A stretch of 64,000 bases of DNA from a virus. Both the position numbers and the translations under genes were made by a program. Each line of letters begins with the position of its first letter. Position 1 is the stretch's first letter. The stretch covers positions 1-64,000 of the IMG/VR virus record IMGVR_UViG_3300016478_000246; one strand, given 5' to 3'. Shown here in pieces: positions 29,493-63,514 of this stretch. The notes under the pieces were generated by a model. It was not told where the DNA came from and made no database searches. It saw only the letters and a list, made by a program, of their open reading frames with translations.

Positions 29493-29524
29493 TCACAATT
29501 TATTAACTTAACCGTTTTAAACAA

Positions 29525-34847: not shown

Positions 34848-35505
34848 GAATCGACTCCTTAGGGATGAGACGTTTATAGGTATCAATTTTGAGGCCATTA
34901 TAGACTACTTTCTTGACTTTATAAGTATAGTTGGTACGCCAGAGTTATTTGATGATAAGATCACGGCAGAACTTGATATAGTGGATTACAGAGCACCTCT
35001 CCCAGCAGATTTTGTTGAGGAGATTTTTGTGCATATGGACAATAAGCCCGCCAAAGAATCTACTGATATTTCAGCAATTCATCGCAAGGCATTAATGGAT
35101 ATTGCCAAGGATGAGTTTTACGATAGAGAGCAGTCTATTACTTATAAAATAGGCGGCGGATACATTTACACATCCTACGAAACCGGCAAACTAATATTGC
35201 AATATAAGTCAATTAAAGTCGATGAGGATGGCTATCCTATGGTGCCTGACGATGCGGTGTTTATGCTGGCCTTACAGAGCTATATAGAGCTACAATTCCT
35301 TAAGATATTATATCGCGCAGGTAAGATTGCCGGCACAATCTATGATGAGGCCAAGCAACAATACGCATGGAATGTGGGACGTTATGAAACGCATGCAAAA
35401 CGATTAACTCCAGCCAAGATGGAATCTATTTCTGCGATGTTTAAAAACATTCATCATCGCCGAAACGAGTTTGGCCAGAGATATAAAAATCTTTCAAGTC
35501 AATAA
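34810..35505 (+). CDS. Tail tubular / ring protein
   Basis: YRAPLPADF..DEDGYPMVPD..QQYAWNVG; precedes the muzzle gene. Confidence 0.7.
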   Translation: MSVVKWTSLKVIENRLLRDETFIGINFEAIIDYFLDFISIVGTPELFDDKITAELDIVDYRAPLPADFVEEIFVHMDNKPAKESTDISAIHRKALMDIAKDEFYDREQSITYKIGGGYIYTSYETGKLILQYKSIKVDEDGYPMVPDDAVFMLALQSYIELQFLKILYRAGKIAGTIYDEAKQQYAWNVGRYETHAKRLTPAKMESISAMFKNIHHRRNEFGQRYKNLSSQ

Positions 35506-39776: not shown

Positions 39777-39808
39777 TTTGGATAAATCAAAAAAATATTG
39801 TATATTTG
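39777..39808 (+). promoter_or_regulatory. Bacteroidota primary-sigma promoter (cargo operon)
   Basis: TTTG-N20-TATATTTG; implies the gene starts at ATG 39830. Confidence 0.75.
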
Positions 39809-39829
39809 CCTATATTTAAAAACATTGCA

Positions 39830-46700: not shown

Positions 46701-49700
46701 GAGCAGAGCGAGGACCATAAAGATTTGTTTAAGGATGATTCGGCGAAATTTATTGAATCTCTTAAAGAACAAAAGGTTGTACTTGAACAGTTAAAAGGTG
46801 CTGCGCTCAACAACAAGGGTAACAAGGAAGCACTTGACACTAAACTCAAAAACATTGAGAGCCAATCAATGATGAGCGCATTTGGACTTATGCTCGATGG
46901 CAATAAGGTTAAGATTTCTAACATGGCCTTGATTGAAAAAATTAAAGCTATTGTTGGTGTTGACGTTTTAAATAAGCTAATCTCAAACCTTGAGACTGAT
47001 GGGATGGTGGGTGATTATGTCTTTATAGACAAGTTCATGCACGACCTGACAGCGGACCAACGTACGCAGATTTCTGAGGCTATCAAGGCTGAGCATGCCG
47101 TCGTTAAAGACAGATTATCTAAGAGCGTATTTAGGCTCAAAGTCGCTGATGGAAGACTTGATAAGTATGCAGCTATTCTTGAAAACCCTCAAAAGATTTT
47201 GACGGTATTCCTTGGTTCTAAGAAGATGTTTAAAAAGGGCGCTGATGGATATATTTTCCTAACGTCCACGACTAATAAAAAGAACATTATTGATAGATAT
47301 ATGATTCATGGCAATTTAGATTTGTTGCTTGAGGAAATAACTATTGACAATGGCAAAACACTGATGGCTGAAAATGTTAAATTAACAGCCCAGGATGTTA
47401 CTGATGTGGTAGAGTTTTTGAAGGATATGATTCAGATGCGTAACAACGCACGAATCCTTAGCGACCTGGCATCAACGTCTGATATGAGTAAGTTTGCAAA
47501 GGCTGAAAAAGACTTGTTGACTTCAACAACTATTGGACCATCACAACAACAGCGTTCAACTATTAAGCGCATATATAAGTGGCTTGGTGATTTCAGCGAC
47601 ACTAAGAATAGCGGCTTCTCAGACATGTTAATTGCTAATGGTATAGCTGGTACCGGTAAGACAATGATAGTGGCTAAAATGCTGTTTAAATTGCTTGCAA
47701 AGACTGCTGGTATCAATGTCAATAAGAATATTATGGTATTAGGTGCAACCAAAGAGGTGGCAGACAATTTATCAAACTCTATCGGCAAGACTATTGGCGC
47801 GACAAGCAAAGCTGTTGAAGATTTAAAGGAAGAAGATCTTAATGACAATATATCAATCATAGCAGTCGATGAAATCGGTGTTCTTAATATTGTAAGACTG
47901 GGAGAACTGGCTGTTAAGTTACGCAACGTTAATGCTAAGCGAATCGAAAAAGGCTTAAATCCAATTAAATTGATTGGATTTGGGGACCCTAACCAGGTGA
48001 CTGAGGTTGAAGGAGATAACGCCTCGCGTATTACAGAGCTTGAGGGGAAGGTTAATGAAGTTCAAACGACAGACTTAGTTGATATTAAGTTTGCCCCAAC
48101 ATTAATGGTTCAGTACCGAAGCGATATTGATGCAATCAACGAAGCAGCGGATGAGTTTAGTGGCCGCAAAAAGCCAGTTAAAAACATCAGCGCGGTATCA
48201 AATGTAAAGAGTGATGAGTACGAAGCTAAAGATGCTAAAGGCGTTCATGCTTACGATAATATCAACTCATTTATTCAGCGCATCGAAGGATTCTTAAAAG
48301 CTAACGAAAAGAAAACTATCACGCTGGCATATAATCTGCCTGAAAACAAGGAAGAGATCTACAAGCGTCTTTCAGACGAGGCTCGCAAAAGAGTTGTATT
48401 TAAAAACTTCTTTGAGTTGCAGGGTTTAACGATTGACAACTTGTTTATCAATGTTAAAGTTAAAGGCACTGACCAGAAAAGGTTCAACTCATCAATGTAT
48501 ATGCTTTTATCTCGCGCAACTAATTATGTGGCTATTAACGATAATCATAGAAATTTTGAGCAGAAGGTAGACCCAATATCTATGGAGAAGGTTGCCGATA
48601 GAAATGTTGAGCAAAAATCCAAGAGCAAAGATGCTTATGATAAAGTTGTTGAAGAAGAACTCGCTGTGATGGGTGATGTTGTTATAGCAAAACAACCAAC
48701 GCTTAAAAAGACACCAAAAGTCAGCACTCCGCCAACACAAAACGATAAGCCTGAGCTAAATCCCGTAAATCATCAGCCTGAATCTCCAGTAGAAGAAGAA
48801 GTTGATGATACCGATGACCGCGAAATAACCCCAGAGGGAAAAGCTGAGCTTGCAGCAAAAGAAGCTGAGCGTGTTAAAGACAAGCCTGATGATGCTAAGA
48901 TTGGTGATATAATCGAAGATACGTGGGAGCCAGGTCAGGTTAAGGTAGAAAATCCAAGAGGAGCTAACTTTAAAACTGCCGATTTAAAAGACGGAGATAA
49001 ACTTTTTGTTCTTAAAATTACCCCAGGCCAAATCAAGGGCGGTCCTAAAGAGGTTGCTATACTTGTAAAAGAAATTGAAGTTGCTGGAGAAAAGAAATAC
49101 ATTGAAGTTGCATGGCTCAATAAAAAAGAGGTCAAAGACCTTGGTCTTGAAGACCACCCATTGTTTAAGTCAAAGAAGGGTGTGGACCGAAGCAATGATA
49201 ATGATATGTACTCTGATGTTGAGCACGCAATGTTCAAAGATGAGGATGGCAATTTAGTTCAAGTTAATGTTGACGCTGCAAGAGGATTTAAAGTTAAGTA
49301 CGACCCAAATATCAAAGCTACTGGTAATATAATTAGCGATACTGCTGGATATATTGCAGATAAATTTAAGGTTTTGACAGGCAAGCTTAATGTTGAGTAC
49401 TTTTTGCCGACACGTTCCACTATGGATAAAACAAATCCTAAGAACGCTTATAGCAATTTACCACTTGATTTGGGGGTGCCGTATTTGATCTTCACCTTGC
49501 CAAACGGTAAAACAATTCATGTCCGCTTAAATCCAAAGCCTTTTACTAAAGATAATTCATGGACAATCAATGGAGTATCTGCTTTTGAAAGACTAAGATT
49601 ATTCACTGAAGGGTCAGCAGCTATTATTAAGTGGCTGGAAGAGAATTCAATTGCAACATCAATAGGCTCTTTTTCGTACAGAGATTTGTTGCACGCAATA

Positions 49701-52700
49701 GGCTCTGACAAAGAACTGATGATAGCCCCTGATGGTGATAAGCGATTTAAACTCATAGAGGGATTATCTGCGACCACATTTGAAGGAGCTTTTAATAATA
49801 GCATTGACGCACAAAAAATGTCAGCATTCTTTGGTGGGGATATTGATTTGTTCAATAGATTTATCACTGAAAACAGAGCCGCCCTTGAAAATGTATTAAA
49901 TCAATACTTCTCTGTTAAGGAGGAGACTGAGATTATCAATATCACAAATTCTATCAAAGAGGGAGACCCGTATAAATTAGGTGGTGCATTTGAAGTGTTT
50001 GCAGATGTTGTTAATAACAAATTTGCAGAAATGATTTCAGGACCACTTGCTGCTGAGCTGGCCAAAAATAATCCATCAAGAGAAGCTGTACTTGAAATAT
50101 TTGGAATAGAGCTCGAATTAACCAAAGATGGCGTCCCATCTGAAAGTGAGTCAAATAAAGAAAAGCTTGCCGCTGCTGAAAAATTTTCAAAAGAGTTTGA
50201 AAAGCTTCATAGGGTCCACATAACAAAAGAAAAGCTTGCCGAAATAGCTTTTAAATCATGGACTGCGTTTGAAGAAGGCCAAATGTTTCCAAAAGGCTCA
50301 TCAAAGAAAATATCAAGCAATGGAAGCGAACAGAATGCCTTTAAGATAATCCGTGACTTATACAAGCAAATGTTGGTGTTTAGTCCAATAGAGCATGAAG
50401 ATGAGAACGGTATTATATACAAATGGCATGCGGAATTTAACAACAAAAAAATTGATGGCAAACATGTTATTACCAGGGCGTACCCAGGAGAAGAAGATAG
50501 GCCGTTCATAGTTCAGGGGCGTACAACTCAAAATTCTCCAATACAAGCTATCCTCAACAACGTAGCGCGCTCCAACAAAACTATCAATGGTAAAAACCTG
50601 CGCAAGTACGCTCCTAAGAAAAGAGTGCTTGTAACACACTATGAGAGTGATGCTGTAACGTTGCTATGGGAGAAACGCATTGATAAGACAACCGTTGATC
50701 ATCCAGTGGTAGAAAATATGCACCTTGATGCAAGGGCTCATGGAGTTAATGAAGAGGCTCTCGTGAAGTACATATCTATCAGAGATGCTGCTATTGCTGA
50801 ATACAATAAAGCCAAGGGTTACGCATCAAACAAAGACCATACTGATGAAGACAGGGTTGCTATCCAGTCAGTATTACAAGAGTCTATCGAAGAAGAGTTG
50901 ATTGATAGTCTCGTTAAAAATGAGGCTGACACCAACTGGGCAATGGATGATCTTGATGAAATACTTTCAGGGAATACTCGTCGTCAGATTGTAAGCAACG
51001 AAATCCGTGATGCTAATAAAAACGGTCTTGCTGCTATGCGAGAATATCAGGAAAACTTCTCATCAGACTTTGCTGGCATCCAGGAAAGTACTTTAATTAT
51101 CAAAAGAGATGTGCCTTCCGCTAAGCCAGAGCAAGCTCCTGCTGAAGCCGCCGCAGCTCCACAAGAACAAATTGATGTAGTTCCTGAAGAGGAAACTGAG
51201 GCTGGTGTCGGATTACTTGATATTGGTGGAAGCCTTAGCGATATTGGTATGCCCAAAGATGATTTTGATGACGCGTTCTTAGTCAAAGAGGGTACATCTC
51301 AAGAGCAACTTGGTAGGGTTATTAATGTAAACACAGCATTGGCTTATTTAAGGCGCTTATTTCCTAACGCAGACATTAACACATTTAGATTCTTAGAGTC
51401 TGTTAGAGGGCAAGGAAAAGATGTTTTTGGGCGTTTTGTTGACGGTATAATTGAAGTTGAAAAAATTGCTAAATCAGATAACCTCTATGAGAACATAGTT
51501 CGTCATGAAGCATTCCATAAAGTGTGGCGTGAGTTCATGACCGCATCGGATAGAAAGATAGTTGTTGAGGCTTACCTTAAAACACTTCCTAAAGATGAGC
51601 AAGCTAAATATAGCAATATGAGTTATGCTTATTTGGCTATGGAACTTGAAGAGCACATAGCAAGGGCTTATCAGGTCTATAATAAAAACCAGGATATTAA
51701 ACCAGGACCAATGCGCAAAGCCATGTTATTCTTAAAGAGAATATTTAGAGACTTGATGCACTTCCTAACTGGCAATCCGGCAGAGTTAAACCATTATTTC
51801 AACTTGATTGACTATGGATTCTTTAATACTCAGTTTGATCAGTTTAGAGGCTCCAAAGGATACTATGGTATTATTAAAGACTTTCAGAGTGTTGATAACT
51901 ATATCTACGCTAAAGAGTTTGTTGCAGAGACTTACAAGTATTTCTTGTTTAATGGACGCGGGCCTTCAAAAATCCCAATGTCTCAGCAAGAAATGAACGC
52001 AGCAGTTATTTTAGTGGCTCAAGATAGACTCAATAAGCGCAAAGCGTTTCTTAACGCCAATGCTCAAAAGTATATGGACAAGGAGCTTACTAAAGAGCAG
52101 GTTGAAAAATATGAACAAGCTGAGAAGGAAGCTAAGGCTTATGAGATGTTATTACTATCTGACAAGGTTTTAAAAGACACTGAGAAGTTAAATGATTACA
52201 AAAAGATACTTGATGACGAAGCTATTGATAAAGAGTCTAAGGAATACAAGGAGGCTAAAGAGGCGTATGACAAAACTATTACACGAATCAATAAGGCTAA
52301 AAACCAGGACTTCCCAAGATTCTCAAAAATACTTGATGAGATTTTACCAGGCCGTGCAGACAATAAACTGGCCGCTGGTGTTTTAACGGTTGGGGATAAA
52401 GTTGAAGACACTGAAATCGACTACGAGGATGAAGAAGAGTTTAAAGACCCATCTGCCGACTCTGGCGTAACAGCATTATCTCCGTTTGAAGCCAACTCTG
52501 ACAAGCACGATAGGGAGACTAAAATGTTTGCAAGCGTTAAACACGCTTTATCAACTGCAAGAAATCTCCAATATAATACATTTATTGATGGTGGTTTGGC
52601 GTTTAGGATGGTGTTTAAGTGGTTTGAAGGATTGAACAATGATTCAAACGAAATCCTATTGCAAGTGCGCAACAGAATGATTAATGACGTTTTCAAAGGC

Positions 52701-55700
52701 GACCATAAAATTACTGATACTGAACTGATTAAAGATTATGGCAATAGGGAGGATGTGTCAATGTATTTTGCCCTTAAAGAAATATATGACATTGCATCGT
52801 CAAACTTTTATAGCAAAAGGTATTATGATGCAAATCCTGAACTGAAAGGCAGTAGGCTTGAGGATAATATCGCAGTAATCCTTGACAGCAAGGGTGACGT
52901 CGCTCATCTTGCAGTTCATAAAAAGGGTGAGGATATTAGCAAGGCTTTGTTGCAGGACTTAAAGAACAATGCTGATGTTATATTAATATCTGCAAAAGAC
53001 CTTAAGCTTGATAAAAACAACAAACATTTATTGCTCGTTCAAGAAATGATTGCTAAGGCAGCAAAAGAAGGGCTTACCCTTAAAGACTATGAAATCTCTG
53101 CGGTAATGCAAAAGGAGATATTTAGAAATACCTGGGTTGAAATACAAAACACTTTCTCCTCAATGAAAGAGTCGAACCTAATAGTTGTTAAACGAAAAGA
53201 TTCTTTTAAAGGTATTGAATACTCAGTTTCATCCGGGGCGAGCACTGAAAAGCAACAGTTGGTTATTAATAATGTCAAAGACGAGATTGCTAAGAAGTTT
53301 AAAACTAAGTCTGAGTTTATGGCATGGATTAAAACTCAGGCAACAACTTTTGATTTAAAGTCCGCAGACATTGATGCGATGACCGATGAGCAGCTTAAAG
53401 AAACTATCAAAGCATTCTTTAAGAGTATCGGCATAACAAGCAAGCCTGACTTTAAGAACACTACAAGAGTTGTTTGGGACTCAGTTGTGAGAGAATTAAA
53501 TTGGTTTAGCTCTGCGAACATGGTTAAATGGGCGGAGTCACAAGAGGCTAAAGCCGTCGACAAGGCTGCTGATGAAAACGACATGATTGCTGGTCGCAAG
53601 GATGAAGAAGATGCTGATTATATTGATGAGGTATTTGAAGAAGAGGGAACTATTCTTAACAAACTCGCGTCTGTAATATCAGCAGAAAATACTAAAAGAC
53701 GCGCAGGCTCATTCAGAGGCGCTGACGACAGAAAGCGATATACTATTGTTATGTCGGAGTTTGCGACTAAGGTTATAACCCAACTCAAGTCGCATGAGTT
53801 TGGAGTGAGAGGCGGCAACATTAAGCTACCAGATTACTTAAAGACTGACTTCATGCGTGCTAACCCAATTCTTGCGGGATTGCAAAAGATTCACAAATTC
53901 CACTTGCATGGTGGTAATAAATACTCAAACAATTATAGTGAAGATAAAGTAATTGACTACAATAAAGAAGGATTCCAGCAGTACATGGAAAGGTCATTTA
54001 TGGCCTACTTCATGCGTGGATTTAAAAAGGGTGGAAGTTCTGTTGAATACTTCCAGCCAGTGTATGTAAAATCTAACAGAAAAGATACTACTCCCGCAAA
54101 GATGAATGTCTTGACATCTGAAAAGATTATAAACACAATTTATCCACAGATATTTAATCAGCAATTATTACAAGACCCAGACTTGGGAGACAAATGGAAT
54201 GTTGATGATGAAGGAACTCCGGTAGATGTATTTAAGTTTGTTAACATGGGGCCGTTAAAACAGGCTGTCATAGATGCAACTGGCAATAAATTTACCAAAG
54301 AAAAGTTTATTGAAATGATGCGTCAGGGTAAGACCTGGAATGATTTAGACTCCATATTTGGTGAAGGCACTATAAACAAGGTCAAAGAAAATCTCAACAA
54401 ATACTTTGATGGTATTGCAAAACAGCTTGCTCAGCGCATGGTTACGGAAGGGGTTAAATTGCATGTTGATATGGCACAGATGGTTGAAAACTTGCTTGTG
54501 TTTGATGGCATGGACCCAAAGGTTGCTAAAGAAACTGTTGAAAAAGAGTTTAAAGACTTTGGTACTAATTTATTTCAGAGTGCAAGTGCTAATGCTAAAA
54601 AAGAAGGCAAAGGTATATACTCTAACAAAGCATCAATGCTTGAGGCCGCAGTAAGATTATTTGCTATGAACAACGAAGTTAATTCATATGCGCTTAATCA
54701 AATATTCACTGGTAATCAAAATGTGTTTGGCAAAGGAGTTTCGATACTTAAGCGTATGTCTGTCATCTTTGGTCCTGGTATGGGTATAGCTGTTGGACCT
54801 ATGGGTGCAAAAGTTAAATCAAACGTGCTTGTGCTTAAAGACCCAACCTATGGTAGCGAATATAGGAAGTTAATTTATGGGCAAGTAGGATTGACTGAGA
54901 GCGAAATAAGTGAGCTTCTTTCAAAGAACTCCAGAGGTGCAATAAATTACGCTGATGGACAGGGTTATATAACTCCTAAAAGAGCACAAGAGCTTAGACG
55001 GGCTGTTGGAGCATCCTACAATCTATCAACAGTTGGTAAGCCTTTGTGGTATGATATTGATGAAAATGGCGTTGCCCATGCAATTAAATACTCATGGATT
55101 GAGCTTACTGACGAGATTGTAAATAGTGACAGCACGGGAGGGTTAAAGGCCCTTAGGGAGCTTATGGAGAAGCATGATGTTGATGAAGCAGTATTTGCAT
55201 CAGCCGTTAAGGTTGGATTGCCAAAAGGCGTTGTTGACTGGGATGCCGTTATGAACAAGACTGCTGATGACGACATGGTTTCAAAAGCGATGCTTCAAAT
55301 GAAAAATGCTAACTATCGCTTGCAGCTTAACCCTGAGCATGGATTTGGTGATAATAACACCACCGTTCCATCACAGTTAATGTTTATCCTCAATATTTTA
55401 AACAACAATGTTGAAGAAGCTGATAAAGCTTATGATGCATTAATGAATTTATATAAGATTGGATTTAAGGAGCTTTCAGAGAAAATCAAGAAACATGGTA
55501 AGCTTAGTGAAGAGAAGGTTTTAGACACCCTTAAGACTAAGTTTAAATCATCTCCATCAGCAGAGATTGAATCTAATCTTTTGGATGAAGGTGTGACCAC
55601 CGATTGGCCAGCAATCACTAATAAAGCATTTAGCCAGATGACATCGTTATTCTCAAAGAACACTATTAACCAAAGGCTTAAAGGTGGTAAGACGGTATTG

Positions 55701-58700
55701 ATGGCGTCAAATGGCGTTACTGTCAATGGCAGAGAATTGTCTTATAGCGTTGAAGTTGATGCTGATGGAAGAAAGACGATAATGTCGGAAGCCGTTTTAA
55801 CAAGAGAAGCTGCCAAACAAATATTAACTCCTGAAGAATATAAAGAGTTGAATGATGCTATTGCAAAAGGCAGGACTCCTAATCTTATATTTACTAATGG
55901 TAATTTATTTGGCTATCGTATCCCATCTTCTGAATTGCACAGTGGTGTAGCTCTTAAGATAGTTGGACTTATTGATGGACCAGGAGTTAACATTGTTGTT
56001 CCTAAATACATTGTAGAGGTTCATGGTAGTGACTTTGACGTTGACTCGTTATTTGTTATTGGACGTGAAGTGGTTTATAATAAAGAAGGAGTTCTTATCA
56101 ATTACGATTGGGATAAAAAGAATAATCGCTATGAATTAAGAATTGCAACTGAGGATGAAATCGAAGCATTGCCTATTAAAGACAAGAAGCGCTACTATAA
56201 AAACATTGTAACAGAAATGCTTTTAAAAGCTATCTCAAAGCGTGAAAACTTTGTTCGTACCAACTCGGCCATCTCCCTTGCAGCCCTTGAAGGACTAAGG
56301 GTTAAGATTGCCAGAGAGACCGGTGGCAGCGTTGTAAAGAGTGAAAAGAACTTATCAAATGTTTTAGAGGCATTTGAAGTTCACCAATCATCACACAACG
56401 GTAGTGATGGTGTAGGTATCTTTGCAAGCTCATTTAAAGCCATAGCTTACGCTATGAGGGCTGGTCTCAACAAAGCAATCCCAAGAGTGACCATCAATGA
56501 TAATGATGATAGACAGAAGATTGTGTTTAATGGCAAATTAATTGATTTGTTGTCAAACAAGATAACAACTTTTGAAATGATTGATGCGCTTGTAAATGCT
56601 GCGGTTGATAACGTTAAGGAGCAAATACTTCCGTATTTTAATCTTAATGCAAACACCATGTCATCATTTGTTGGAATGCTGGCATTAGATGCAGGTGAAA
56701 CTAATGGCATCAGCAATTCAAATGAATTGGCTGGGCGTATGGCAAGACAGTTGTTCTTTAAGAATATCGCTGACTATAAATCTGGTAATAGCTTCATGGC
56801 GACTGCCGGAGTTATCAATGACATTGCAGAAGCGCTTAAAAAACTTGGCAAAGATATTCCTGAAAGTTACGAAGACTTGACCACCGAAGAGTTGACAAAA
56901 GCTTTAGCGTTTAACGAAAAGGCTGGTATTAACTCTTTAAATGAGCTGTATGAAAAACTTAAAAATACAACCGATGCAGAACTTATTGATTTTGCAGCAC
57001 AACAAGTTAAATTCTTTGAGTTTTACAAGAGCTTTAATAAAGTGGGTGAGGATTTGTCTAAGTTGTCTGGATTGATGTCGATACTAAGAGAGTTTCCATC
57101 TGATGCAATTGCCCTTGAAACTAAAGTAAAAGATTTTGGCTCAGTGTTTGAAGAAGTTGATGAAAAGATTGCTAAGCCTATAGATGGGGATTTAGAGAGA
57201 ACTATTGATTATTCAAAAGTAAAATCTAAAGATTCATTTAGCATAGATCTGCAAGAGCTGTTTATTACCGCACCGCACTTAGCTGAGGCGCACAAAGTAT
57301 TAACAGAGCTGTATTTAGCGACAGAGTTTTATTTCTTTAAACATAGCAAGGAGGTTAAAGCATTTGTTGAACAAGTATCTGGGATTACTGGTAAAATTCT
57401 TAACGAGACCAGCAACGAAGAAATTGCCGAGGGTGACAAAGAAGAAGGTGAAAGTAAATCATCCATGAAGCAAGACGTTAAGACTAAAGTCTCTATGCGT
57501 GATGATGTTATTAAGTTCTTAATTAATGCCATTAATTGGGACCCAGCATTTCCTGGGTACAACAATTTACCACCGGCAGAGATTGAGGTTAATAAAGAGA
57601 AGCGTACAGTTGCTGGTGTTGATGCGTTTAAAAAGCACTTTGGCGAAAAGATATATGCTCTGAAAGAGCACTTAAAAACTGTTTCATCAGAGCAGGGTGT
57701 TAACAAGAAAATCCTTATCAACAAGTTCATTAATGAACTATCACCACGCGTCGGTTGGGGTGGTATCACTGAGTGGTCTATGCCGCGCTCGGTTGATTTT
57801 AAATCTGAGGATTTAATACGTCTTAAGGCTGATTTTGAAAAGCTTAACAAGTATGATATTAAATACAACGAAGAAACTAAAAAATGGGAGGTTTCTGAAA
57901 CTGATGATTTAAGTTACAAAGAGTGGCAAAAAGATTTTGTTAGATATGGAACTATTGTTAATGGTATGTCTTTTGGGGCATCAAGCTTTTCACTTGCTTT
58001 ACCATCTGACTTGTACATGGGGCTTTCTGATGGGCTGAGGGCTATGGTTGAAGTTATTAAAAACAATCCAAAAATGCTTTATAATAACAAACATAGATTC
58101 TTTATTCAATACGCTTTTAACAACATATTAAAAGTTAAGTCTATTGACACCAAGGCTGAGAAAGAAGGAGCGTCATACTCCGGGTTTGTTGAGATTCAGG
58201 ACAAGGAACATTTCTTTAATTTAAAATTCCCTCTTGAAGTTACCAAGGATAAGGATAACAATGAAGTTGTTCATGACAACATGCCATCGTTAATTCGTAG
58301 GACTGGTAATAAAATCTCCGACATATTCATGCTTGTTGGTACTAAAGATAAGCATGCATATTATATAAGGCTTGGAGCACAACGCCCAACAATGACTTAC
58401 AATACAACTGAAGAAGAGTTTGTGGCAGCAGCCAGCACTGAATTTAAAGATAACAAAGACACTATTATGAGTCTTAATGAGTTTAAAGGAATGTCTGAAA
58501 TTGATGCTGAGGCTGTATGGTCCACCCTAAACGAACAAGTTAGGGCTGAAAGATTATTCTCGGTTAAAGTTGATACAACCATGCCGCATATTATAGTACC
58601 AAACACTCTTGAAGATAAATTTAAGGTGCAACCAGATTTAGTTGAAATGCTTGCTAAAAAATATGGTTCTGAACCATTTATGGCAATTGTTAGAAATCAG

Positions 58701-58916
58701 TCTGACATCACAATATCAAATCCAAGAGTTGTTATGCTTAAAAAGCGGTCAAGTGACTCGTTGGCGGTGGTTGGAACAAAAGAAGATGTAGTTGACAATA
58801 CATCATGGGAAGCTGTTAAAGATAATAATGTTATCAAGAGCAGCGGCTGGACTAAAGAAGACTGGGATGCAAAGTCACAGGAAGAAAAGGATCAATTTAT
58901 TAAATGTTACGTATAA
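43707..58916 (+). CDS. Giant virion RNA polymerase polyprotein (5069 aa): SF1-helicase-like, zincin and two-barrel RNAP domains
   Basis: GIAGTGKT (47640), VDEIG, GDPNQ, QGLT; HEAFH (51504); ADGQG, YRIP, GSDFDVD (56031-56045). Confidence 0.88.
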   Translation: MAKTIEDKALGLEFVSDDPLKSYNPSIAVKQTGDFNVPGIGTVSRESLAPVNLWQADPTRQEAVGQYMQGIDMADKYLSRENITPEDLDDINEVMYRNQSTVEAVANGFVSRAISILPKTLNTIGSIGGLGYGMMDYMFDAINPNEEADLGRSLNQGLDNFWVRGMNHWDESLKELMPVFGSKYGYYSDSLMDNLSSAKFWAEDGFDGLAFTASAFVPGAGWAKALDAMSKTAKGANFFAQTAKFAKYGKAAQAMNAMSKEQLVASGVDKLTNILTTATNVINESALEAYEATKNFDKDTFIAKRLQESPEAKRIMQLEEQVSMMRDDSEIAGLINPEEGPKAMKMRELQEAKDNLLNQLDEEYLEAKGQLGLNVFRANNMVLILPDYLQSKLFTKAFGNASKSIRAEARQAANKAIRTTALKEGFKQAGYAIGREGFWEENAQTAASTYYQEKAFGTPRIDNDVVGILDNMVKNATFQDKEGAKSIILGAAAGGLSSFGLGAYAQKQKNKEFDKEEKLWQNILNIAGASVKTAVDDWRALADENGNISTENFIKAFTFAKDKKDAIESQQVALLLGNEIAHELGRNDEITKLFWGEVSSVNGSKYISQEEAIEVIKGKLTALKEVDGADNETIAMADGFIAKVDKLSENLKNAEETINRVIDSEDKNAADNKDVLTRSLFFAMNKLAEVNDLIENGETISDRQKEALGALAEEYQEAIDALSDKNKVKGLVQKFTNDANYHLALQNQIAEETAKPKETQDPTKLKVLKYQLEEFYEIYGFQTNADKKSRRAWGTNGLRLGFAPTDVVNRGTLGLRDKYFYDLGRDALARNEVERLMADVNGDVTAAEIVSFVESENFHYLTKEEADRLSAIADSKAQALKEAKDNAIVIRDDFSIDTTAFDELSKSPDNIFTEATSSKPSELIGNAYAKKSQERTEFIGSEDKEMSFANNIRRRLATKFKRDTDTMIEKINEDIDSYSNIEAINERINATQDRIDVFEQSEDHKDLFKDDSAKFIESLKEQKVVLEQLKGAALNNKGNKEALDTKLKNIESQSMMSAFGLMLDGNKVKISNMALIEKIKAIVGVDVLNKLISNLETDGMVGDYVFIDKFMHDLTADQRTQISEAIKAEHAVVKDRLSKSVFRLKVADGRLDKYAAILENPQKILTVFLGSKKMFKKGADGYIFLTSTTNKKNIIDRYMIHGNLDLLLEEITIDNGKTLMAENVKLTAQDVTDVVEFLKDMIQMRNNARILSDLASTSDMSKFAKAEKDLLTSTTIGPSQQQRSTIKRIYKWLGDFSDTKNSGFSDMLIANGIAGTGKTMIVAKMLFKLLAKTAGINVNKNIMVLGATKEVADNLSNSIGKTIGATSKAVEDLKEEDLNDNISIIAVDEIGVLNIVRLGELAVKLRNVNAKRIEKGLNPIKLIGFGDPNQVTEVEGDNASRITELEGKVNEVQTTDLVDIKFAPTLMVQYRSDIDAINEAADEFSGRKKPVKNISAVSNVKSDEYEAKDAKGVHAYDNINSFIQRIEGFLKANEKKTITLAYNLPENKEEIYKRLSDEARKRVVFKNFFELQGLTIDNLFINVKVKGTDQKRFNSSMYMLLSRATNYVAINDNHRNFEQKVDPISMEKVADRNVEQKSKSKDAYDKVVEEELAVMGDVVIAKQPTLKKTPKVSTPPTQNDKPELNPVNHQPESPVEEEVDDTDDREITPEGKAELAAKEAERVKDKPDDAKIGDIIEDTWEPGQVKVENPRGANFKTADLKDGDKLFVLKITPGQIKGGPKEVAILVKEIEVAGEKKYIEVAWLNKKEVKDLGLEDHPLFKSKKGVDRSNDNDMYSDVEHAMFKDEDGNLVQVNVDAARGFKVKYDPNIKATGNIISDTAGYIADKFKVLTGKLNVEYFLPTRSTMDKTNPKNAYSNLPLDLGVPYLIFTLPNGKTIHVRLNPKPFTKDNSWTINGVSAFERLRLFTEGSAAIIKWLEENSIATSIGSFSYRDLLHAIGSDKELMIAPDGDKRFKLIEGLSATTFEGAFNNSIDAQKMSAFFGGDIDLFNRFITENRAALENVLNQYFSVKEETEIINITNSIKEGDPYKLGGAFEVFADVVNNKFAEMISGPLAAELAKNNPSREAVLEIFGIELELTKDGVPSESESNKEKLAAAEKFSKEFEKLHRVHITKEKLAEIAFKSWTAFEEGQMFPKGSSKKISSNGSEQNAFKIIRDLYKQMLVFSPIEHEDENGIIYKWHAEFNNKKIDGKHVITRAYPGEEDRPFIVQGRTTQNSPIQAILNNVARSNKTINGKNLRKYAPKKRVLVTHYESDAVTLLWEKRIDKTTVDHPVVENMHLDARAHGVNEEALVKYISIRDAAIAEYNKAKGYASNKDHTDEDRVAIQSVLQESIEEELIDSLVKNEADTNWAMDDLDEILSGNTRRQIVSNEIRDANKNGLAAMREYQENFSSDFAGIQESTLIIKRDVPSAKPEQAPAEAAAAPQEQIDVVPEEETEAGVGLLDIGGSLSDIGMPKDDFDDAFLVKEGTSQEQLGRVINVNTALAYLRRLFPNADINTFRFLESVRGQGKDVFGRFVDGIIEVEKIAKSDNLYENIVRHEAFHKVWREFMTASDRKIVVEAYLKTLPKDEQAKYSNMSYAYLAMELEEHIARAYQVYNKNQDIKPGPMRKAMLFLKRIFRDLMHFLTGNPAELNHYFNLIDYGFFNTQFDQFRGSKGYYGIIKDFQSVDNYIYAKEFVAETYKYFLFNGRGPSKIPMSQQEMNAAVILVAQDRLNKRKAFLNANAQKYMDKELTKEQVEKYEQAEKEAKAYEMLLLSDKVLKDTEKLNDYKKILDDEAIDKESKEYKEAKEAYDKTITRINKAKNQDFPRFSKILDEILPGRADNKLAAGVLTVGDKVEDTEIDYEDEEEFKDPSADSGVTALSPFEANSDKHDRETKMFASVKHALSTARNLQYNTFIDGGLAFRMVFKWFEGLNNDSNEILLQVRNRMINDVFKGDHKITDTELIKDYGNREDVSMYFALKEIYDIASSNFYSKRYYDANPELKGSRLEDNIAVILDSKGDVAHLAVHKKGEDISKALLQDLKNNADVILISAKDLKLDKNNKHLLLVQEMIAKAAKEGLTLKDYEISAVMQKEIFRNTWVEIQNTFSSMKESNLIVVKRKDSFKGIEYSVSSGASTEKQQLVINNVKDEIAKKFKTKSEFMAWIKTQATTFDLKSADIDAMTDEQLKETIKAFFKSIGITSKPDFKNTTRVVWDSVVRELNWFSSANMVKWAESQEAKAVDKAADENDMIAGRKDEEDADYIDEVFEEEGTILNKLASVISAENTKRRAGSFRGADDRKRYTIVMSEFATKVITQLKSHEFGVRGGNIKLPDYLKTDFMRANPILAGLQKIHKFHLHGGNKYSNNYSEDKVIDYNKEGFQQYMERSFMAYFMRGFKKGGSSVEYFQPVYVKSNRKDTTPAKMNVLTSEKIINTIYPQIFNQQLLQDPDLGDKWNVDDEGTPVDVFKFVNMGPLKQAVIDATGNKFTKEKFIEMMRQGKTWNDLDSIFGEGTINKVKENLNKYFDGIAKQLAQRMVTEGVKLHVDMAQMVENLLVFDGMDPKVAKETVEKEFKDFGTNLFQSASANAKKEGKGIYSNKASMLEAAVRLFAMNNEVNSYALNQIFTGNQNVFGKGVSILKRMSVIFGPGMGIAVGPMGAKVKSNVLVLKDPTYGSEYRKLIYGQVGLTESEISELLSKNSRGAINYADGQGYITPKRAQELRRAVGASYNLSTVGKPLWYDIDENGVAHAIKYSWIELTDEIVNSDSTGGLKALRELMEKHDVDEAVFASAVKVGLPKGVVDWDAVMNKTADDDMVSKAMLQMKNANYRLQLNPEHGFGDNNTTVPSQLMFILNILNNNVEEADKAYDALMNLYKIGFKELSEKIKKHGKLSEEKVLDTLKTKFKSSPSAEIESNLLDEGVTTDWPAITNKAFSQMTSLFSKNTINQRLKGGKTVLMASNGVTVNGRELSYSVEVDADGRKTIMSEAVLTREAAKQILTPEEYKELNDAIAKGRTPNLIFTNGNLFGYRIPSSELHSGVALKIVGLIDGPGVNIVVPKYIVEVHGSDFDVDSLFVIGREVVYNKEGVLINYDWDKKNNRYELRIATEDEIEALPIKDKKRYYKNIVTEMLLKAISKRENFVRTNSAISLAALEGLRVKIARETGGSVVKSEKNLSNVLEAFEVHQSSHNGSDGVGIFASSFKAIAYAMRAGLNKAIPRVTINDNDDRQKIVFNGKLIDLLSNKITTFEMIDALVNAAVDNVKEQILPYFNLNANTMSSFVGMLALDAGETNGISNSNELAGRMARQLFFKNIADYKSGNSFMATAGVINDIAEALKKLGKDIPESYEDLTTEELTKALAFNEKAGINSLNELYEKLKNTTDAELIDFAAQQVKFFEFYKSFNKVGEDLSKLSGLMSILREFPSDAIALETKVKDFGSVFEEVDEKIAKPIDGDLERTIDYSKVKSKDSFSIDLQELFITAPHLAEAHKVLTELYLATEFYFFKHSKEVKAFVEQVSGITGKILNETSNEEIAEGDKEEGESKSSMKQDVKTKVSMRDDVIKFLINAINWDPAFPGYNNLPPAEIEVNKEKRTVAGVDAFKKHFGEKIYALKEHLKTVSSEQGVNKKILINKFINELSPRVGWGGITEWSMPRSVDFKSEDLIRLKADFEKLNKYDIKYNEETKKWEVSETDDLSYKEWQKDFVRYGTIVNGMSFGASSFSLALPSDLYMGLSDGLRAMVEVIKNNPKMLYNNKHRFFIQYAFNNILKVKSIDTKAEKEGASYSGFVEIQDKEHFFNLKFPLEVTKDKDNNEVVHDNMPSLIRRTGNKISDIFMLVGTKDKHAYYIRLGAQRPTMTYNTTEEEFVAAASTEFKDNKDTIMSLNEFKGMSEIDAEAVWSTLNEQVRAERLFSVKVDTTMPHIIVPNTLEDKFKVQPDLVEMLAKKYGSEPFMAIVRNQSDITISNPRVVMLKKRSSDSLAVVGTKEDVVDNTSWEAVKDNNVIKSSGWTKEDWDAKSQEEKDQFIKCYV

Positions 58917-58918
58917 TA

Positions 58919-61900
58919 ATGAATAACTGTGTAAATATGAACCATAAGGATTTTAAAGACCTGGCAGAAATGTCAGGTCTAAATCCTTTGGATTTGGCGC
59001 TCAAGATGGGCGTATGGATGAATAATAACAATACGACAGAATGGCCAACATTAGAGCAATTAGGAATTAAAGCTGTAAAACAAATTGAATTGGTCCAAAG
59101 ACAAGGCTTACAAGCATCTGAGCCTAAAACCTTTAAGGCTCCAATATTTAAAAAATGGACCGCTCAATTTAAGGGTGAAAGGTTTGGGCTTAAGTCTATT
59201 CTCAAAGATATTACAGGGCTTTCAAAAAACATGAGTTCTCTATTGAACTTTTTATTGAAAAATGTCAATGGCGATGTTCAATTCCAGATAATCTCAAGAG
59301 AGCAGATTATTAAAAAGTTTGGGCAAAAGATGGCTAATTCAAGGGGGTTTTATGATACTGATTCAAACACAATCTACTTAAGCTCTGACAGCAAAAACAA
59401 TCTTGACAATAAAGATTTGCTAACAACAATTCTACATGAGTTAGTCCATAACGTATCAGTCAGTAAAATTAAAGCTATTCAGTCTGAGTTAAGGCGGGGA
59501 GTGATGAAAAATTCTGGAGTATATACGGAGCTGCAAGACTTATACAATAAGCTAAAACCGCTCTTGCAAAATAGATTCCCTGAGTATTTTCAAGATGAAC
59601 TTGGGAATGACTCATTGATTGAATTTATTGTGGCATTATCAGATGAAAAGTTCACAAAGGCCCTTAATGCTCTTGAAGAAGATAAAGTATCGTTCTTTAA
59701 AAAGATTATCAATTGGTTTAAGAATCTGTTGGGAATCAAAGCAAATACCTTGCATGATAGATTGATGGACGCTTTATACCAATTATCTTCAATGACTATC
59801 AGCGAAATTGATAACGTTCAACTCAACAAAACCTTTGCACGCGTTCAGAATTTTTATGAATTCAATGAAACAACCAAAAAGATTTTAGCTGAAAGCGAGG
59901 ATTTATCAGTTCAAATGGTTAAGGATGAAGATGGTAATGAAGTTGAGGGTGAAGTGTATGAAGACGTAAGAAGCGGTAAATTATATAATCGTATCACTTA
60001 TGGAGCCAAGTCACTATTAAAAGCGTTTGTGCCCAAAAAGTTTGATGGAGATTTTTCTCAAAACAAGGCTGATGAAATATGGAAAAACCTTGACCATGAT
60101 TTTAAAATCAATATAGAGGGGACGTCTTATACTTATGATGAATATCTGTCCAAGTTGAGAGATAGTTTTAAATTTGGCACCACTCGCGGTCGAATTATGG
60201 ACCATATCAATCAGTTAATTAATGAGACTGACCCTATGGAACAGTCCAGAATTAAAGCATTAATTGCTAAAGAAGCTGCAAAAGGAGGTGTTGAAGAATC
60301 AAGGTATAACTGGTTATTTGATGATGTACTCGACCATAAAGGTGCTAAAACCGGTCAGCAAGTTTATGAGAAAATGTATGAACAGCTTGGCGTTAATAAA
60401 TTTAAAAAATATGTCAAGGCAGAACTGCGTGACAAGGTTACTACTCAGGTGACTGTTGCTTCGGATTTATTAGGATACGCGGGGTCTATAGACATGCTTG
60501 TAGAGCACCAAGAAAACTTTTATGGCAAGGATGGAGAGATAGCTGGTAAATACCTAAGTATTTATGACTTGAAATCCGGTAAGTCGCAGCTTAACGAAAT
60601 AGGTATGCATTTGCTGCACTATGGAGAGCAGAACAAATGGATTACCAATGGTGGGTTAGATATGGCTAAATTACAGATTGCAATTTATGCAATGATGATT
60701 AAGCTAAACAATCCTGAGCAGCGATTTAAAAACCTGCAAGTGGTATCAGTGCAAAATAAATATGAAGCTATGCGCTTTAATAAGCACACCCTGGTTGAAG
60801 TTGAATCATTTATCCCCATGATGGAGGCCTTCTTTAAAGATAAAGGCTTAATGAAAGAGCTTGGTCTTGACCCCAACATAGCAGCAGATATGGTGCGGCA
60901 AAGCCCTGATGTGTTTAATTACAACCATTATCAACATGTTGAGTTCGTTGAAGATGAAATAAATACTCTTGAAAAAATCAACTTTAAAATAGCTTTAAAC
61001 GAGCAAATACGCAGGGAGTCTAACATATCAAATGAAGAGAAGTATCGCCTTGAGAAGGAGATGCAAGAGCTCTTGAAGAAAAAGATTATGTACGAGGAGG
61101 ATGAGAGTACTGCGTCAGAGTTTTTAAGCCAAAAGAAAACCCCATCAACATCATTTGTTGCAAGATGGCTTGGCGGTCTTGGTGATTCAAACCACCCTCT
61201 TGTGAAGGCTTTTAAATCAGCGTGGGACAGGGCTTATAATAGGCATACTATTAATATGCTCGCTAAAGGTGATGAGATTGAAGTAGTTGTGGATGCGCTT
61301 AGAAACGATTATAAGAAGCGCAAGACTATTTCTGAAATGGTTGAGGGCGATAATCTCACAATGTATGATGAGTTATTAAAAGATGATTTTGTTGAAGGCG
61401 TAGGTAATGTTGAACGACTAATCCTCGAAAAAGATGCTGAGTGGTCAAGACTGAGTGACGCGCAACAAAATTTTATCAAACTTCATGAGAAAATGATGAA
61501 AGAGTATTTTGTTGGTAAGGGAGCATATCTCAACACCCAGGCTTCACAAGACATTCGTAAAAAGTCAGTATCTCATCTGCAACTACAAGCGCCAGGTTTT
61601 ACATATTACGAAGGATTCTTTCCAAAGACTGCTCCATCAGATATGGATCTAAAGCGTCGATATGGCAAAGGAAATGCCCTTACAGGTGCTATTTTAAGTC
61701 TTGAATATAAGAAAGCCCTGCTTGCAAGAAAGTTTAGCTTTGCTGAAGAGTTTATGTTTGAAAACTATGGTAACGAGCGCATAGCTCTTCCAATTAAATA
61801 CTTAGGCTCAAGAAAAAATGATGATGAAAAGTATTATTCACATGACTTGGGGGCATCATTAACTAAATTTGTTGAGTGGTTAGAGTATAAAAAAGAGATG

Positions 61901-63514
61901 GACCCGGTTTACGCTATGGGCAAAGCTATTAATTATACAGTCCTGGCTGAAACTGCAAGGCTTAGAAATCAAGATAAAGATAAGGAGGCTGATAAGGTTT
62001 TGGCCGAAATGGATATTCTTAAAGGATTTTTAAGAAAAGGTGTGCAACGAATTTCAAAAGACGATACAATGTGGTTTGGTGAGTTTAATATGAAAATCAC
62101 TAATCCAGCCACTGGCAAGCCAATATTTTTTGCCCCTGAAAAGTTTTTACGCGCCCTATCAAAGTGGGCCAGAGACACTACTATGTGGTTTAAGCCTTTT
62201 GCCGCTGCTGGTAACACTGTGCAGCAACAGTGGCTGCTTAATCGTAAAGCAATTGATGACGCATGGGCAAATAAATGGTTTGGGGATTCTAATAGCCAAA
62301 CAGACATGGGGCCTAAAGATATGGCATTTGCGACAGAAATATTTATTGGTATTGGTCGCGACATAATTCTTGGCAAGCTTAAAGAAAATAAAGCCTGGGC
62401 TATGATGGAGCAATTTAACTATATTGACGGCAACACTATGGCTGCTTTAGAACGCAGATACCATACTATGAGAGAGCGTACGTCGTTTGACGAGGCAGCT
62501 CTTATAATGCATACTATGGGTGAATTTTATGCTCTTACATCAACAATGTTTGCGCAAATGAACCACATGAAGCTTAAAGACGGTCGTTCATTTTATGACG
62601 CTTATGAATACAAGGATGGTAAATTAACATGGACTGGCGGAGTGCGCGCCAAAATTAAAATGGGTAATGGTCAATATAAAGATTTGATGGGCTTAGACTC
62701 AAAAGAAATAGCCAGGTTTAAAAGAATCCATGAAAGAATGCTTGGCAACTACCGCTCTGATGAGTTTTCAGGGCTTGAGTTATATGCTTTTGGACAGTTC
62801 TTTGTGACTCTTAAAAAATACTTCCAGCGTATTGTGTTAAACCTTGTTGACTCAAAAACCATAGATCCTCTATTAGGCGAATACAGGCCAACAGGGACCA
62901 TGAGAGATGCCGGGATGGAGTACGATGTGGTTGTGTGGCAAGGGCGCCATATTGAGGCTAAATTTACGTCTGCAATGAGATTGTTTGCGCTACCATTTTG
63001 GTTCTTTAAAGGGCAATATAAAGACAAAATAAATGCTCTTACGTTTGAGCAAAAACGTAACATGCTTGAGTTTGCACATACTTACATTGAATTAGCTGTT
63101 TTAGCCATATTATTTTCAACATTCTTTTCAGATGTTCCAGATGATGATGCCACAAAGAAATGGGCTAAGATGTATCTTATAGACAACCTGGCGCAACAGT
63201 ATAACCCTGTGGATATATTGAGAACTATGAGCAACTTAACACCGGTTGGATTCACCAAGTCTTTTAGGACTATGGAAAATATGGTATTGTTTAGCGGCTC
63301 GTTAATAGCTCTTGGAGAAGGCGATAGAGATAGGGCGTTCACGCAGCAAGGCAATTTGCGAGGATTTATTGAAATGCAAAAATCAATTCCTGGATTAGCA
63401 GCATATTACGACCTTACGAGAAAACTTGATTCTATTGAATTCTTAAACCCTGACAACGAGACGAGTAATTATATGACTCAAATGTTTAATGAAAAGGGTA
63501 TGATTTTCAGATAA
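58919..63514 (+). CDS. Large cargo protein with zincin and PD-(D/E)XK nuclease-like domains
   Basis: Likely start ATG 58919; GFYD..TIYL..HELVH..EF; AGSIDML..IYDLKSG..QIAIYA; hydrophobic C-terminal segments. Confidence 0.8.
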   Translation: MNNCVNMNHKDFKDLAEMSGLNPLDLALKMGVWMNNNNTTEWPTLEQLGIKAVKQIELVQRQGLQASEPKTFKAPIFKKWTAQFKGERFGLKSILKDITGLSKNMSSLLNFLLKNVNGDVQFQIISREQIIKKFGQKMANSRGFYDTDSNTIYLSSDSKNNLDNKDLLTTILHELVHNVSVSKIKAIQSELRRGVMKNSGVYTELQDLYNKLKPLLQNRFPEYFQDELGNDSLIEFIVALSDEKFTKALNALEEDKVSFFKKIINWFKNLLGIKANTLHDRLMDALYQLSSMTISEIDNVQLNKTFARVQNFYEFNETTKKILAESEDLSVQMVKDEDGNEVEGEVYEDVRSGKLYNRITYGAKSLLKAFVPKKFDGDFSQNKADEIWKNLDHDFKINIEGTSYTYDEYLSKLRDSFKFGTTRGRIMDHINQLINETDPMEQSRIKALIAKEAAKGGVEESRYNWLFDDVLDHKGAKTGQQVYEKMYEQLGVNKFKKYVKAELRDKVTTQVTVASDLLGYAGSIDMLVEHQENFYGKDGEIAGKYLSIYDLKSGKSQLNEIGMHLLHYGEQNKWITNGGLDMAKLQIAIYAMMIKLNNPEQRFKNLQVVSVQNKYEAMRFNKHTLVEVESFIPMMEAFFKDKGLMKELGLDPNIAADMVRQSPDVFNYNHYQHVEFVEDEINTLEKINFKIALNEQIRRESNISNEEKYRLEKEMQELLKKKIMYEEDESTASEFLSQKKTPSTSFVARWLGGLGDSNHPLVKAFKSAWDRAYNRHTINMLAKGDEIEVVVDALRNDYKKRKTISEMVEGDNLTMYDELLKDDFVEGVGNVERLILEKDAEWSRLSDAQQNFIKLHEKMMKEYFVGKGAYLNTQASQDIRKKSVSHLQLQAPGFTYYEGFFPKTAPSDMDLKRRYGKGNALTGAILSLEYKKALLARKFSFAEEFMFENYGNERIALPIKYLGSRKNDDEKYYSHDLGASLTKFVEWLEYKKEMDPVYAMGKAINYTVLAETARLRNQDKDKEADKVLAEMDILKGFLRKGVQRISKDDTMWFGEFNMKITNPATGKPIFFAPEKFLRALSKWARDTTMWFKPFAAAGNTVQQQWLLNRKAIDDAWANKWFGDSNSQTDMGPKDMAFATEIFIGIGRDIILGKLKENKAWAMMEQFNYIDGNTMAALERRYHTMRERTSFDEAALIMHTMGEFYALTSTMFAQMNHMKLKDGRSFYDAYEYKDGKLTWTGGVRAKIKMGNGQYKDLMGLDSKEIARFKRIHERMLGNYRSDEFSGLELYAFGQFFVTLKKYFQRIVLNLVDSKTIDPLLGEYRPTGTMRDAGMEYDVVVWQGRHIEAKFTSAMRLFALPFWFFKGQYKDKINALTFEQKRNMLEFAHTYIELAVLAILFSTFFSDVPDDDATKKWAKMYLIDNLAQQYNPVDILRTMSNLTPVGFTKSFRTMENMVLFSGSLIALGEGDRDRAFTQQGNLRGFIEMQKSIPGLAAYYDLTRKLDSIEFLNPDNETSNYMTQMFNEKGMIFR

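Follow-up and report, generated by a model that had tools for sequence, protein, structure and literature searches.

Paired terminal cysteines in the otherwise cysteine-poor virion cargo of a crass-like phage suggest an end-to-end link between split proteins

The cargo gene block and its two cysteines

The window analysed in this study is the first 64 kb (64,000 nucleotides, nt) of the 98,352-bp crass-like virus record IMGVR_UViG_3300016478_000246 from IMG/VR, and its + strand block closes with four cargo genes. The last two of these code for a giant virion protein of 5069 amino acids (aa) that includes an RNA polymerase (RNAP) and for a gp49-like protein of 1531 aa. The two genes are separated by 2 nt, and each product has a single cysteine close to the terminus that faces the other protein. 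The four genes and the two cysteine codons are located as follows.

39806..41755, + strand: cargo protein 1, 649 aa from the TTG at 39806 or 641 aa from the ATG at 39830, no cysteine
41758..43692, + strand: cargo protein 2, 644 aa, no cysteine
43707..58916, + strand: giant virion protein, fusion of gp47-like and gp50-like (RNAP) parts, 5069 aa, single cysteine at residue 5067
58905..58907, + strand: TGT codon of Cys5067, third residue from the C-terminus of the giant, which ends in DQFIKCYV
58919..63514, + strand: gp49-like protein, last gene of the virion block, 1531 aa, single cysteine at residue 4
58928..58930, + strand: TGT codon of Cys4 (MNNCVN) in the downstream protein, invariant in alignment A5

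The original prediction, made from this sequence by a manual scan, stated that these proteins retain only two cysteines, which face each other at 58905-58930. A script recount agreed with it: cargo 1 (641 aa) and cargo 2 (644 aa) contain no cysteine, the giant has one at residue 5067 of 5069 (FIKCYV at the C-terminus), the 1531-aa protein has one at residue 4 (MNNCVN), both TGT codons lie where they had been placed, and no additional internal cysteine appeared in any of the four. Together the cargo proteins have 2 cysteines in 7,885 residues (0, 0, 1, and 1), a frequency of 0.025%, compared with 0.54% (51 cysteines in 9,485 aa) in the other open reading frames (ORFs) of at least 150 aa in the window, so that they show the cysteine suppression of ejection proteins. 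About 42 cysteines would be expected in the cargo residues (Poisson P = 3.6e-16), and given one cysteine per protein, the chance that both lie so close to the facing termini is ~1.5e-6, calculated post hoc. The two-cysteine pattern is not a product of chance.

The position of the downstream cysteine depends on the start codon, for which there are three candidate ATGs, at 58904, 58919, and 58937. A start at 58904 would make the cysteine residue 9 (MLRIIMNNC), and only the ATG at 58937 would exclude it. The latter start is disfavoured because homologous heads all begin with M-x-x-C, and alignment with 18 relatives (A5) places Met1 at the ATG 58919, which also supports residue 4 as the position of the cysteine.

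Cysteine-free ORFs also occur elsewhere in the structural block, within 22417-25557, 28806-30478, 34810-35505, and 6224-7925 (211, 396, 296, 228, 317, 231, 139, and 179 aa). A muzzle-like protein of 1402 aa (35508-39716, PHROG 28748) has 9 cysteines.

Identity of the cargo proteins

Cargo 1 matched the Pfam family crAss_CARG1 (PF25725, E=7.5e-43) and cargo 2 matched crAss_CARGO2 (PF25712, E=1.9e-37), both over the cut-off. In BLASTP, cargo 1 was 42% identical to gp45 of phage crAss001 (E=2e-28), and cargo 2 matched crAss001 gp46 (E=1e-14). Their location directly upstream of the giant is, as judged from sequence, that of the Crassvirales virion cargo and RNAP module.

Sequence comparison identifies the giant as a gp47-like part fused to a gp50-like (RNAP) part, because BLASTP matched its residues 2459-2658 to crAss001 gp47 (2031-2203) and then its residues 3810-4118 to crAss001 gp50 (1166-1492), and because it contains the catalytic motif listed below.

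56031..56045, + strand: RNAP catalytic motif DFDVD, giant residues 4109-4113, found by motif scan and alignment

The motif, which begins at giant residue 4109, aligns with residue 1483 of crAss001 gp50 and residue 1362 of DAC15 gp076, and in the alignment of the RNAP catalytic region (A3) the columns D151, F152, D153, and D155 are invariant. This gp50-type DxDxD motif is collinear with the gp47-like and gp49-like parts, as in the Crassvirales module. Fully fused giants match residues 166-1505 of the downstream protein with their C-terminal third (L055, E=1e-135; L049, E=2e-125), to which crAss001 gp49 also maps. In addition, residues 85-343 of the downstream protein resemble the N-terminal part of the virion RNAP (vRNAP) of a Vibrio N4-like phage (OP745480), with 26% identity and E=1e-6. 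No match was found for the junction by blastn against the phage collection or for the downstream protein by a single-protein scan of IMG/VR, and PDB sequence searches with either half of the giant, with the downstream protein, or with the head profile found nothing better than E=1.5.

Other domains were observed in these proteins. The gp47-like half of the giant has an AAA_30 or PIF1-like P-loop NTPase domain (residues 1307-1439, 47625-48023; Pfam E=4e-7, just over the cut-off), owing to which relatives are annotated as 'DNA helicase' or 'exonuclease V'. A zincin-like HEAFH motif at giant residue 2600 (51504-51518) is common to crAss001 gp47 (residue 2157), and a zincin-like HELVH motif at residue 173 of the downstream protein (59435-59449) lies in a region with weak Pfam DUF6782 and SprT-like matches. 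The window is open under genetic code table 11; to leave the giant genes uninterrupted, its nearest relatives, L047 and L048 (IMG/VR, 35-45% identity), need TGA read as Trp (2-15 codons), and many gut relatives (L073, L081, L099-L125) need TAG read as Gln, with 20-60 codons per giant.

Terminal cysteines at split gene junctions

The original prediction implied that terminal cysteines should recur at split junctions across Crassvirales and disappear where the genes are fused. Both expectations were borne out, since 61 of 72 junctions are paired and the fused giants L077, L124, and L049 have no cysteine. For the survey, IMG/VR was scanned with the RNAP pattern G[SLF]DFD[IV]D[KS], which contains no cysteine, and the large ORFs adjacent to each hit were listed. 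This gave 80 loci. In 19 of them no long frame was open under table 11, and TAG was therefore translated as Gln in 17 and TGA as Trp in 2. Among the 72 unique junctions, cysteines were present on both sides in 61, on neither side in 10, and on a single side in 1. The N-terminal cysteine of the paired junctions was at position 3 (30 junctions), 4 (19), 5 (10), or 6 (2), and the tail cysteine was followed by 0-4 residues, once by 9. The 10 junctions without cysteine were all between cargo 2 and the giant or between the last gene and an unrelated gene, and the single one, in L070, had the head cysteine only. The outer ends of the gene series carried no cysteine, and wherever one seemed to do so, its partner always lay past the end of the contig or a gap exceeding 160 nt. 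Over 118 unique giant ORFs (333,306 residues) the cysteine frequency was 0.147%, and a quarter of these cysteines were terminal.

These counts bear on the possibility that the two cysteines serve as separate anchors, each bonding to the portal, the inner capsid, or cargo 1 or 2, or having a chemistry of its own. As separate anchors would allow, the head cysteine persists without an adjacent terminal partner in L070 and in the G001-type lineage. However, the strict co-occurrence of the cysteines (61 junctions with both, 1 with a single one), their lack at outer ends, and the loss of both in fused forms argue against it; cargo 1 and cargo 2 of the window phage offer no cysteine to bond with, and G001 still has the cysteine of the tail motif. 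Separate anchoring is thus an unlikely explanation.

The same arrangement is found in cultured and classified crassviruses. In crAss001 the cysteines are C2339 of 2341 residues in gp47, C5 and C2404 of 2412 in gp50, and C5 in gp49; in DAC15 they are, in the same order, C2220 of 2222, C5 and C2265 of 2265, and C4. The terminal pattern is shared by cr85_1, cr111_1, and cr106_1 (Steigviridae) and by cr50_1, cr52_1, and cr118_1, which represent three subfamilies of Suoliviridae. In crAss002 (Intestiviridae), gp32 ends in SFVCS and gp33 has MSC at residue 33. The annotated start of crAss002 gp33 (L128 7624-7722, MN917146) is probably 32 codons too far upstream, because the internal M33-S-C35 fits the M-x-C head rule and faces the gp32 tail. 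In the record of IAS virus, the gp50-like gene is split beside runs of N.

Several features of these genomes show at which level the pattern is maintained. Relatives use both TGT and TGC as the cysteine codon, the gaps between split genes range from -8 to +131 nt in all frames, and in crAss001, DAC15, cr85_1, and cr106_1 the gp47 tail cysteine and the gp50 head cysteine are coded on opposite strands ~11-12 kb apart. The same rule also holds in TAG- and TGA-recoded genomes. The alternation of codons, the variable spacing and frame, and the location of partner genes on opposite strands mean that selection acts on the protein. The same observations bear on a historical or nucleic-acid-level artefact, in which the TGT would be a scar of the split, part of an overlapping start (AAATGT contains the ATG 58904), or a signal for translation coupling. 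In the window, the ATG 58904 does overlap the codon of Cys5067, and removal of 23 nt would fuse the frames into FIKC-VNMNH, as such a scar might predict. But TGT and TGC alternate, gap and frame vary over the range given above, gp47 and gp50 lie on opposite strands in four phages, and recoded genomes follow the rule. We consider an artefact highly implausible, as it is already contradicted by the comparative sequence data.

Three other explanations of the junction were tried and rejected. A split intein has no room for a Hint domain, with 0-4 (once 9) residues after the tail cysteine and 2-5 before the head cysteine. Fusion by frameshift or readthrough is opposed by three stops after the giant ORF (TAA TAA TGA) and by a TAA directly before the ATG 58904 in the downstream frame. 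For a lipobox or CaaX signal, there is no signal peptide, and the length of the tail after the cysteine varies from 0 to 4, once 9.

Loss of the cysteine pair upon gene fusion

The fully fused giants L077 (5636 aa), L124 (5472 aa), and L049 (>5883 aa) contain no cysteine. L049 is collinear first with the giant of the window (E=2e-123) and then with its downstream protein (E=2e-125). In fusions of the RNAP with the gp49-like part (L082, L087, L091, L098, and L114), the head cysteine faces the tail cysteine of the gp47-like protein, and the C-terminal ends carry none. Consistent with this, the giant of the window has no cysteine at its own fusion point of gp47 and gp50, where the split relatives crAss001, DAC15, cr85_1, cr111_1, and cr106_1 carry a pair.

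When the splits were placed on the fused reference L077, they fell at no fewer than four separated positions (~750-900, ~1500-2070, ~3160, and ~3900-4400), each with its own pair. One inherited split cannot explain the pairs, because at least four of these positions are well separated. When the tail and head of the window were locally aligned to L049, L055, L052, and L050 at the place where the junction should lie, the result was no more than noise; of the fused forms, L049, L077, and L124 are cysteine-free throughout.

Tail motif and head module

The sequences around the two cysteines are located as follows.

58875..58913, + strand: C-terminal tail motif SQEEKDQFIKCYV, consensus S-x-E-E-x-x-x-[FIL]-[IL]-x-C-x0-3
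58919..59068, + strand: N-terminal head module of ~50 aa, M-x-x-C-[VI]-N-x-N-H-x-D-F ... EWPTLEQLG, shared with distant homologues

In the tail alignment of 19 lineages (A4), the mean column identity is 18% and the cysteine is the sole invariant column. The last 150 aa of the giant were used as a phmmer query against 1.8 billion representatives; apart from two weak, unrelated repeats, the sole match was a 97%-identical copy of this 5069-aa protein, and the tail is not traceable by sequence. As only this near-identical giant was found, the tail region is otherwise free to drift. In the head alignment of the window and 18 relatives (A5), M1, C4, L15, and P43 are invariant. The original prediction would have been refuted by terminal cysteines that were not conserved, and those of both alignments proved invariant. 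Distant homologues of the downstream protein share only its first ~50 residues, at 57-62% identity, and all start with M-x-x-C.

A metagenome scan for the head module yielded 26 loci, all with the head cysteine; one of the two search patterns held the head cysteine (most loci do not fit that pattern), and the tail cysteine was in neither. At these loci, every giant ORF directly upstream of the head gene ends in a cysteine plus 0-3 residues, with endings such as KCL, NCY, ACYGI, DCNGI, ECLGK, NNC, DCR, ECN, NCPPK, and NCAF. The equivalent of Cys4 was present in 28 of 28 heads recovered with the N-terminal module. A related head module of ~45 aa, C-[PVI]-N-x-[NS]-x-x-E-[WF]-K-x-L, occurs at more than one split position, and head-module hidden Markov models (HMMs) detected no internal copy without cysteine within fused giants. 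A head family with C-P-N-x-N-x-x-E-W-K-x-L-V..G-E..A-Y-x-L-W stands at the beginning of the second piece in some lineages and of the third in others, in the manner of a portable docking cassette; its members include L063_2, L076_0, L078_1, L079_1, L097_1, L100_1, L125_1, and others.

In an AlphaFold2 (AF2) model of the head, residues 1-50 had a predicted local distance difference test score (pLDDT) of 89-96, and the module consists of an extended N-terminus bearing the cysteine followed by two helices. Foldseek found nothing in the PDB with E<=0.001 for this model. Co-folding of the window tail (120 aa) with the head (110 aa) scored 0.60, a value in the weak range, compared with 0.01 for the best control. 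Of 80 solved complexes, 58 reach the mark used for co-folds, as do 2 of 110 mismatches; at a score of 0.60 or less, it is reached by only 7 of the 80 together with both mismatches. At least 34% of the contacts agreed between the tail-head runs, and the pLDDT of the partners was at least 63.

In split polyketide and non-ribosomal peptide synthases, chains are joined by docking domains that are non-covalent and unrelated in sequence to the modules described here. The likeness, which is an analogy only, is that short C- and N-terminal modules restore the order of chains that are fused in relatives. By the same principle, tail and head might simply dock, with the cysteines as packing residues of the interface that are never oxidised. 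The existence of a conserved head module and a tail motif favours this possibility, and the co-fold gives it weak support (0.60 against 0.01). However, cysteine is otherwise purged from these proteins, down to the 0.147% given above, so that its use for packing at every junction is hard to explain, and no other residue of the interface is invariant. Docking without a bond is therefore very unlikely in our assessment.

Comparison with ejection proteins of other phages

A solved example of such a link exists in the cyanopodophage A4, where cryo-electron microscopy (cryo-EM) showed the C-terminal helix of gp27 inserted in gp26, with a disulfide between Cys1715 and Cys5 (PNAS 2025, PMC12002296). 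In the record of Anabaena phage A-4L, which is A4, gp27 has 1717 aa with a single cysteine at 1715 (ending in NPCQF), and gp26 has 1114 aa with a single cysteine at 5 (MSKHC). As in the window, these are two consecutive, large, otherwise cysteine-free ejection proteins; the sole cysteine of the upstream protein is third from the C-terminus (NPCQF in gp27, KCYV in the window), and that of the downstream protein is at residue 5 in gp26 and residue 4 in the window. The window pair thus shares with A4 the terminal-only cysteines in adjacent genes of that order. The two systems differ in that A4 is a 42-kb phage of Saffermanviridae without a virion RNAP, whose proteins have 1.1-1.7 kaa and are present in five copies, whereas the proteins of the window have 5,069 and 1,531 aa and carry an RNAP. 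By BLASTP, A4 gp27 and gp26 had no match with E<=0.01 in any crass protein set, and the head HMM gave only noise. By analogy, the window pair may work like the A4 pair. The A4 paper reports one bond and no rule, and does not mention the scarcity of cysteine or gene fission and fusion (PMC12002296).

A further comparison is with crAss001, whose homologous module has the same gene order (cargo 1, cargo 2, gp47-like, gp50-like RNAP, and gp49-like) and the same terminal-cysteine pattern. It differs in having three polypeptides with two cysteine pairs and gp47 on the other strand, whereas the window has one 5069-aa ORF and one pair. Mass spectrometry detected all of the crAss001 proteins gp45, gp46, gp47, gp49, and gp50 in virions, and their ejection in a partly unfolded state has been proposed; several inter-subunit disulfides are present in the tail and portal vertex of these virions (PMC10172136). 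The word 'cysteine' does not occur in the crAss001 atlas (Bayfield et al., 2023, PMC10172136).

The original prediction cited the avoidance of cysteine in injected proteins of phage N4 as a precedent, and this is documented for N4-like phages. In the ejection operon of Schitoviridae, cysteine is suppressed to 0.00075% in gp71 homologues, compared with 0.865% proteome-wide (PMC11445570). The N4-like proteins (N4 gp50; DEV gp71, gp72, and gp73) resemble those of the window in the injection of a giant virion RNAP and in the suppression of cysteine throughout the ejection operon. They differ in that the vRNAP of the N4 type consists of one chain entirely without cysteine, for which no terminal pairs have been reported. 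In addition, the N4-type RNAP is T7-like, while that of the window is presumably of the two-barrel type.

A possible disulfide thread and its alternatives

The analysis shows the cysteine pattern, that it is conserved, and that it is coupled to the fission and fusion of the genes. A link from tail to head between the proteins is strongly supported by these comparisons, because the pair is conserved, it co-varies with fission and fusion, and the cysteine is the only or one of few invariant residues. We infer that this link is probably an inter-chain disulfide that joins the C-terminal tail of the giant to the N-terminal head module of the gp49-like protein in the virion. The giant and the 1531-aa protein would then behave as one thread of ~6,600 residues, as in relatives that have a single ORF. 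Being joined end to end, the thread would stay linear, and no other cross-link geometry could still fit through a narrow tail channel; with the remaining cargo kept free of cysteine, no wrong disulfide could form. The likely benefit would be that all parts of the virion RNAP are packaged together in a 1:1 ratio and delivered jointly. The formation of the bond in this phage and its purpose are inferred from these comparisons.

A broader proposal, which we hold to be evenly poised between right and wrong, is that fission of a giant virion-RNAP polyprotein across Crassvirales is repaired post-translationally. Each break would gain a cysteine tail and a cysteine head, often on a portable module of ~50 aa, and disulfides would rejoin a linear thread of ~0.7-0.9 MDa that is packaged and injected as a unit. 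In the window, this thread would comprise 5069+1531 residues.

The original prediction had left open whether the clasp is a disulfide or a metal site. Its link from tail to head is supported by the conserved pair, by fission and fusion, and by the A4 precedent; its metal alternative is less likely, and a disulfide is favoured because no second ligand is conserved. In a metal clasp, the terminal thiols, perhaps from two copies of each chain, would share zinc or another metal, as in the Rad50 zinc hook or the CD4-Lck zinc clasp. This would predict the same pairing and the same loss upon fusion and, unlike a disulfide, it would form in a reducing cytoplasm; in the clade of the window, His9 and Asp/Glu11 often follow Cys4. 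However, many heads have S, L, N, or K in place of H9, and no His, Asp, or second Cys is conserved in the tails, so that the three or four ligands at least needed for a metal site are not found. One thiol per chain is too few unless the chains dimerise, and the sole solved analogue, A4, has a disulfide and no metal. Metal coordination is accordingly judged improbable.

Several points weigh against the disulfide thread. No sequence homology of the A4 proteins gp27 and gp26 to crass proteins was found. Human or animal guts are the source of many of the recovered relatives, and this points to anoxic habitats and to virion assembly in a cytoplasm that is reducing; the tail disulfides of crAss001 could stem from aerobic purification. 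In L070, the head cysteine has no adjacent partner, as the gp47-like gene is not adjacent, and this lineage is not cysteine-poor (19 cysteines in 2505 aa). Two of the 61 paired junctions (L089 and L092) need the start to be moved to an internal M-S-C, as does crAss002 gp33. The lineages are related, so that the 72 junctions, given as raw counts, are not independent events. In G001 and L003, the tail motif with its cysteine (EKKERAIYCY) is followed by 62 more residues, and two cysteine-free ORFs (333 and 117 aa) lie between the giant and the head protein.

The interposed cysteine-free ORFs of G001 and L003 may be extra cargo or an inserted cassette. In this region (G001 60140-61840, equal to L003 8300-10004), the 117-aa ORF ends in LYKLKFLK, and the same ORF, of ~120 aa, precedes the head gene in L015, L023, L024, and L028.

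The original prediction further held that the clasp chains the proteins for ejection in order and opens in the reducing cytoplasm as a redox-gated delivery or activation step. Ejection in order is plausible. The redox-gated step found no support, since in fused relatives the same parts are encoded as one uncleavable, cysteine-free polypeptide, and separation is therefore not required for function. No glutaredoxin was found. A search for a sulfhydryl oxidase (Erv/Alr, PF04777) had no hit in the phage and none in the control genomes, and so carries no weight. A thioredoxin gene (PF00085, E=1e-20, 70 bits, over the cut-off; G000:C1:64133-64375, - strand) lies ~620 nt beyond the downstream gene, just outside the window, among the first genes of the opposite-strand block, and cr111_1 likewise has a gene with a 'thioredoxin domain'. 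The thioredoxin of the window phage may simply serve ribonucleotide reduction; that it reduces incoming cargo is speculation.

Implications for crassviruses

In a literature search of incomplete coverage, no paper was found on cysteines in crass cargo, and the order-wide rule of terminal cysteines, like its link with the splitting and fusing of genes, appears to be unreported in print. The principle of an end-to-end disulfide between ejection proteins has one published instance, that of A4. Crassviruses are the most abundant phages of the human gut, and they package and inject more than half a megadalton of protein, including an RNA polymerase; the cargo is invisible in the cryo-EM maps of crAss001. 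The terminal cysteines would provide a handle on the stoichiometry of the cargo and on the order of its ejection. The rule would aid annotation, as in the case of the crAss002 gp33 start by M-x-x-C, and it would explain why these genes can fuse and split freely in evolution. It would also tie the single bond of A4 to a wider principle, in which injected proteins avoid cysteine except at linear, threadable links.

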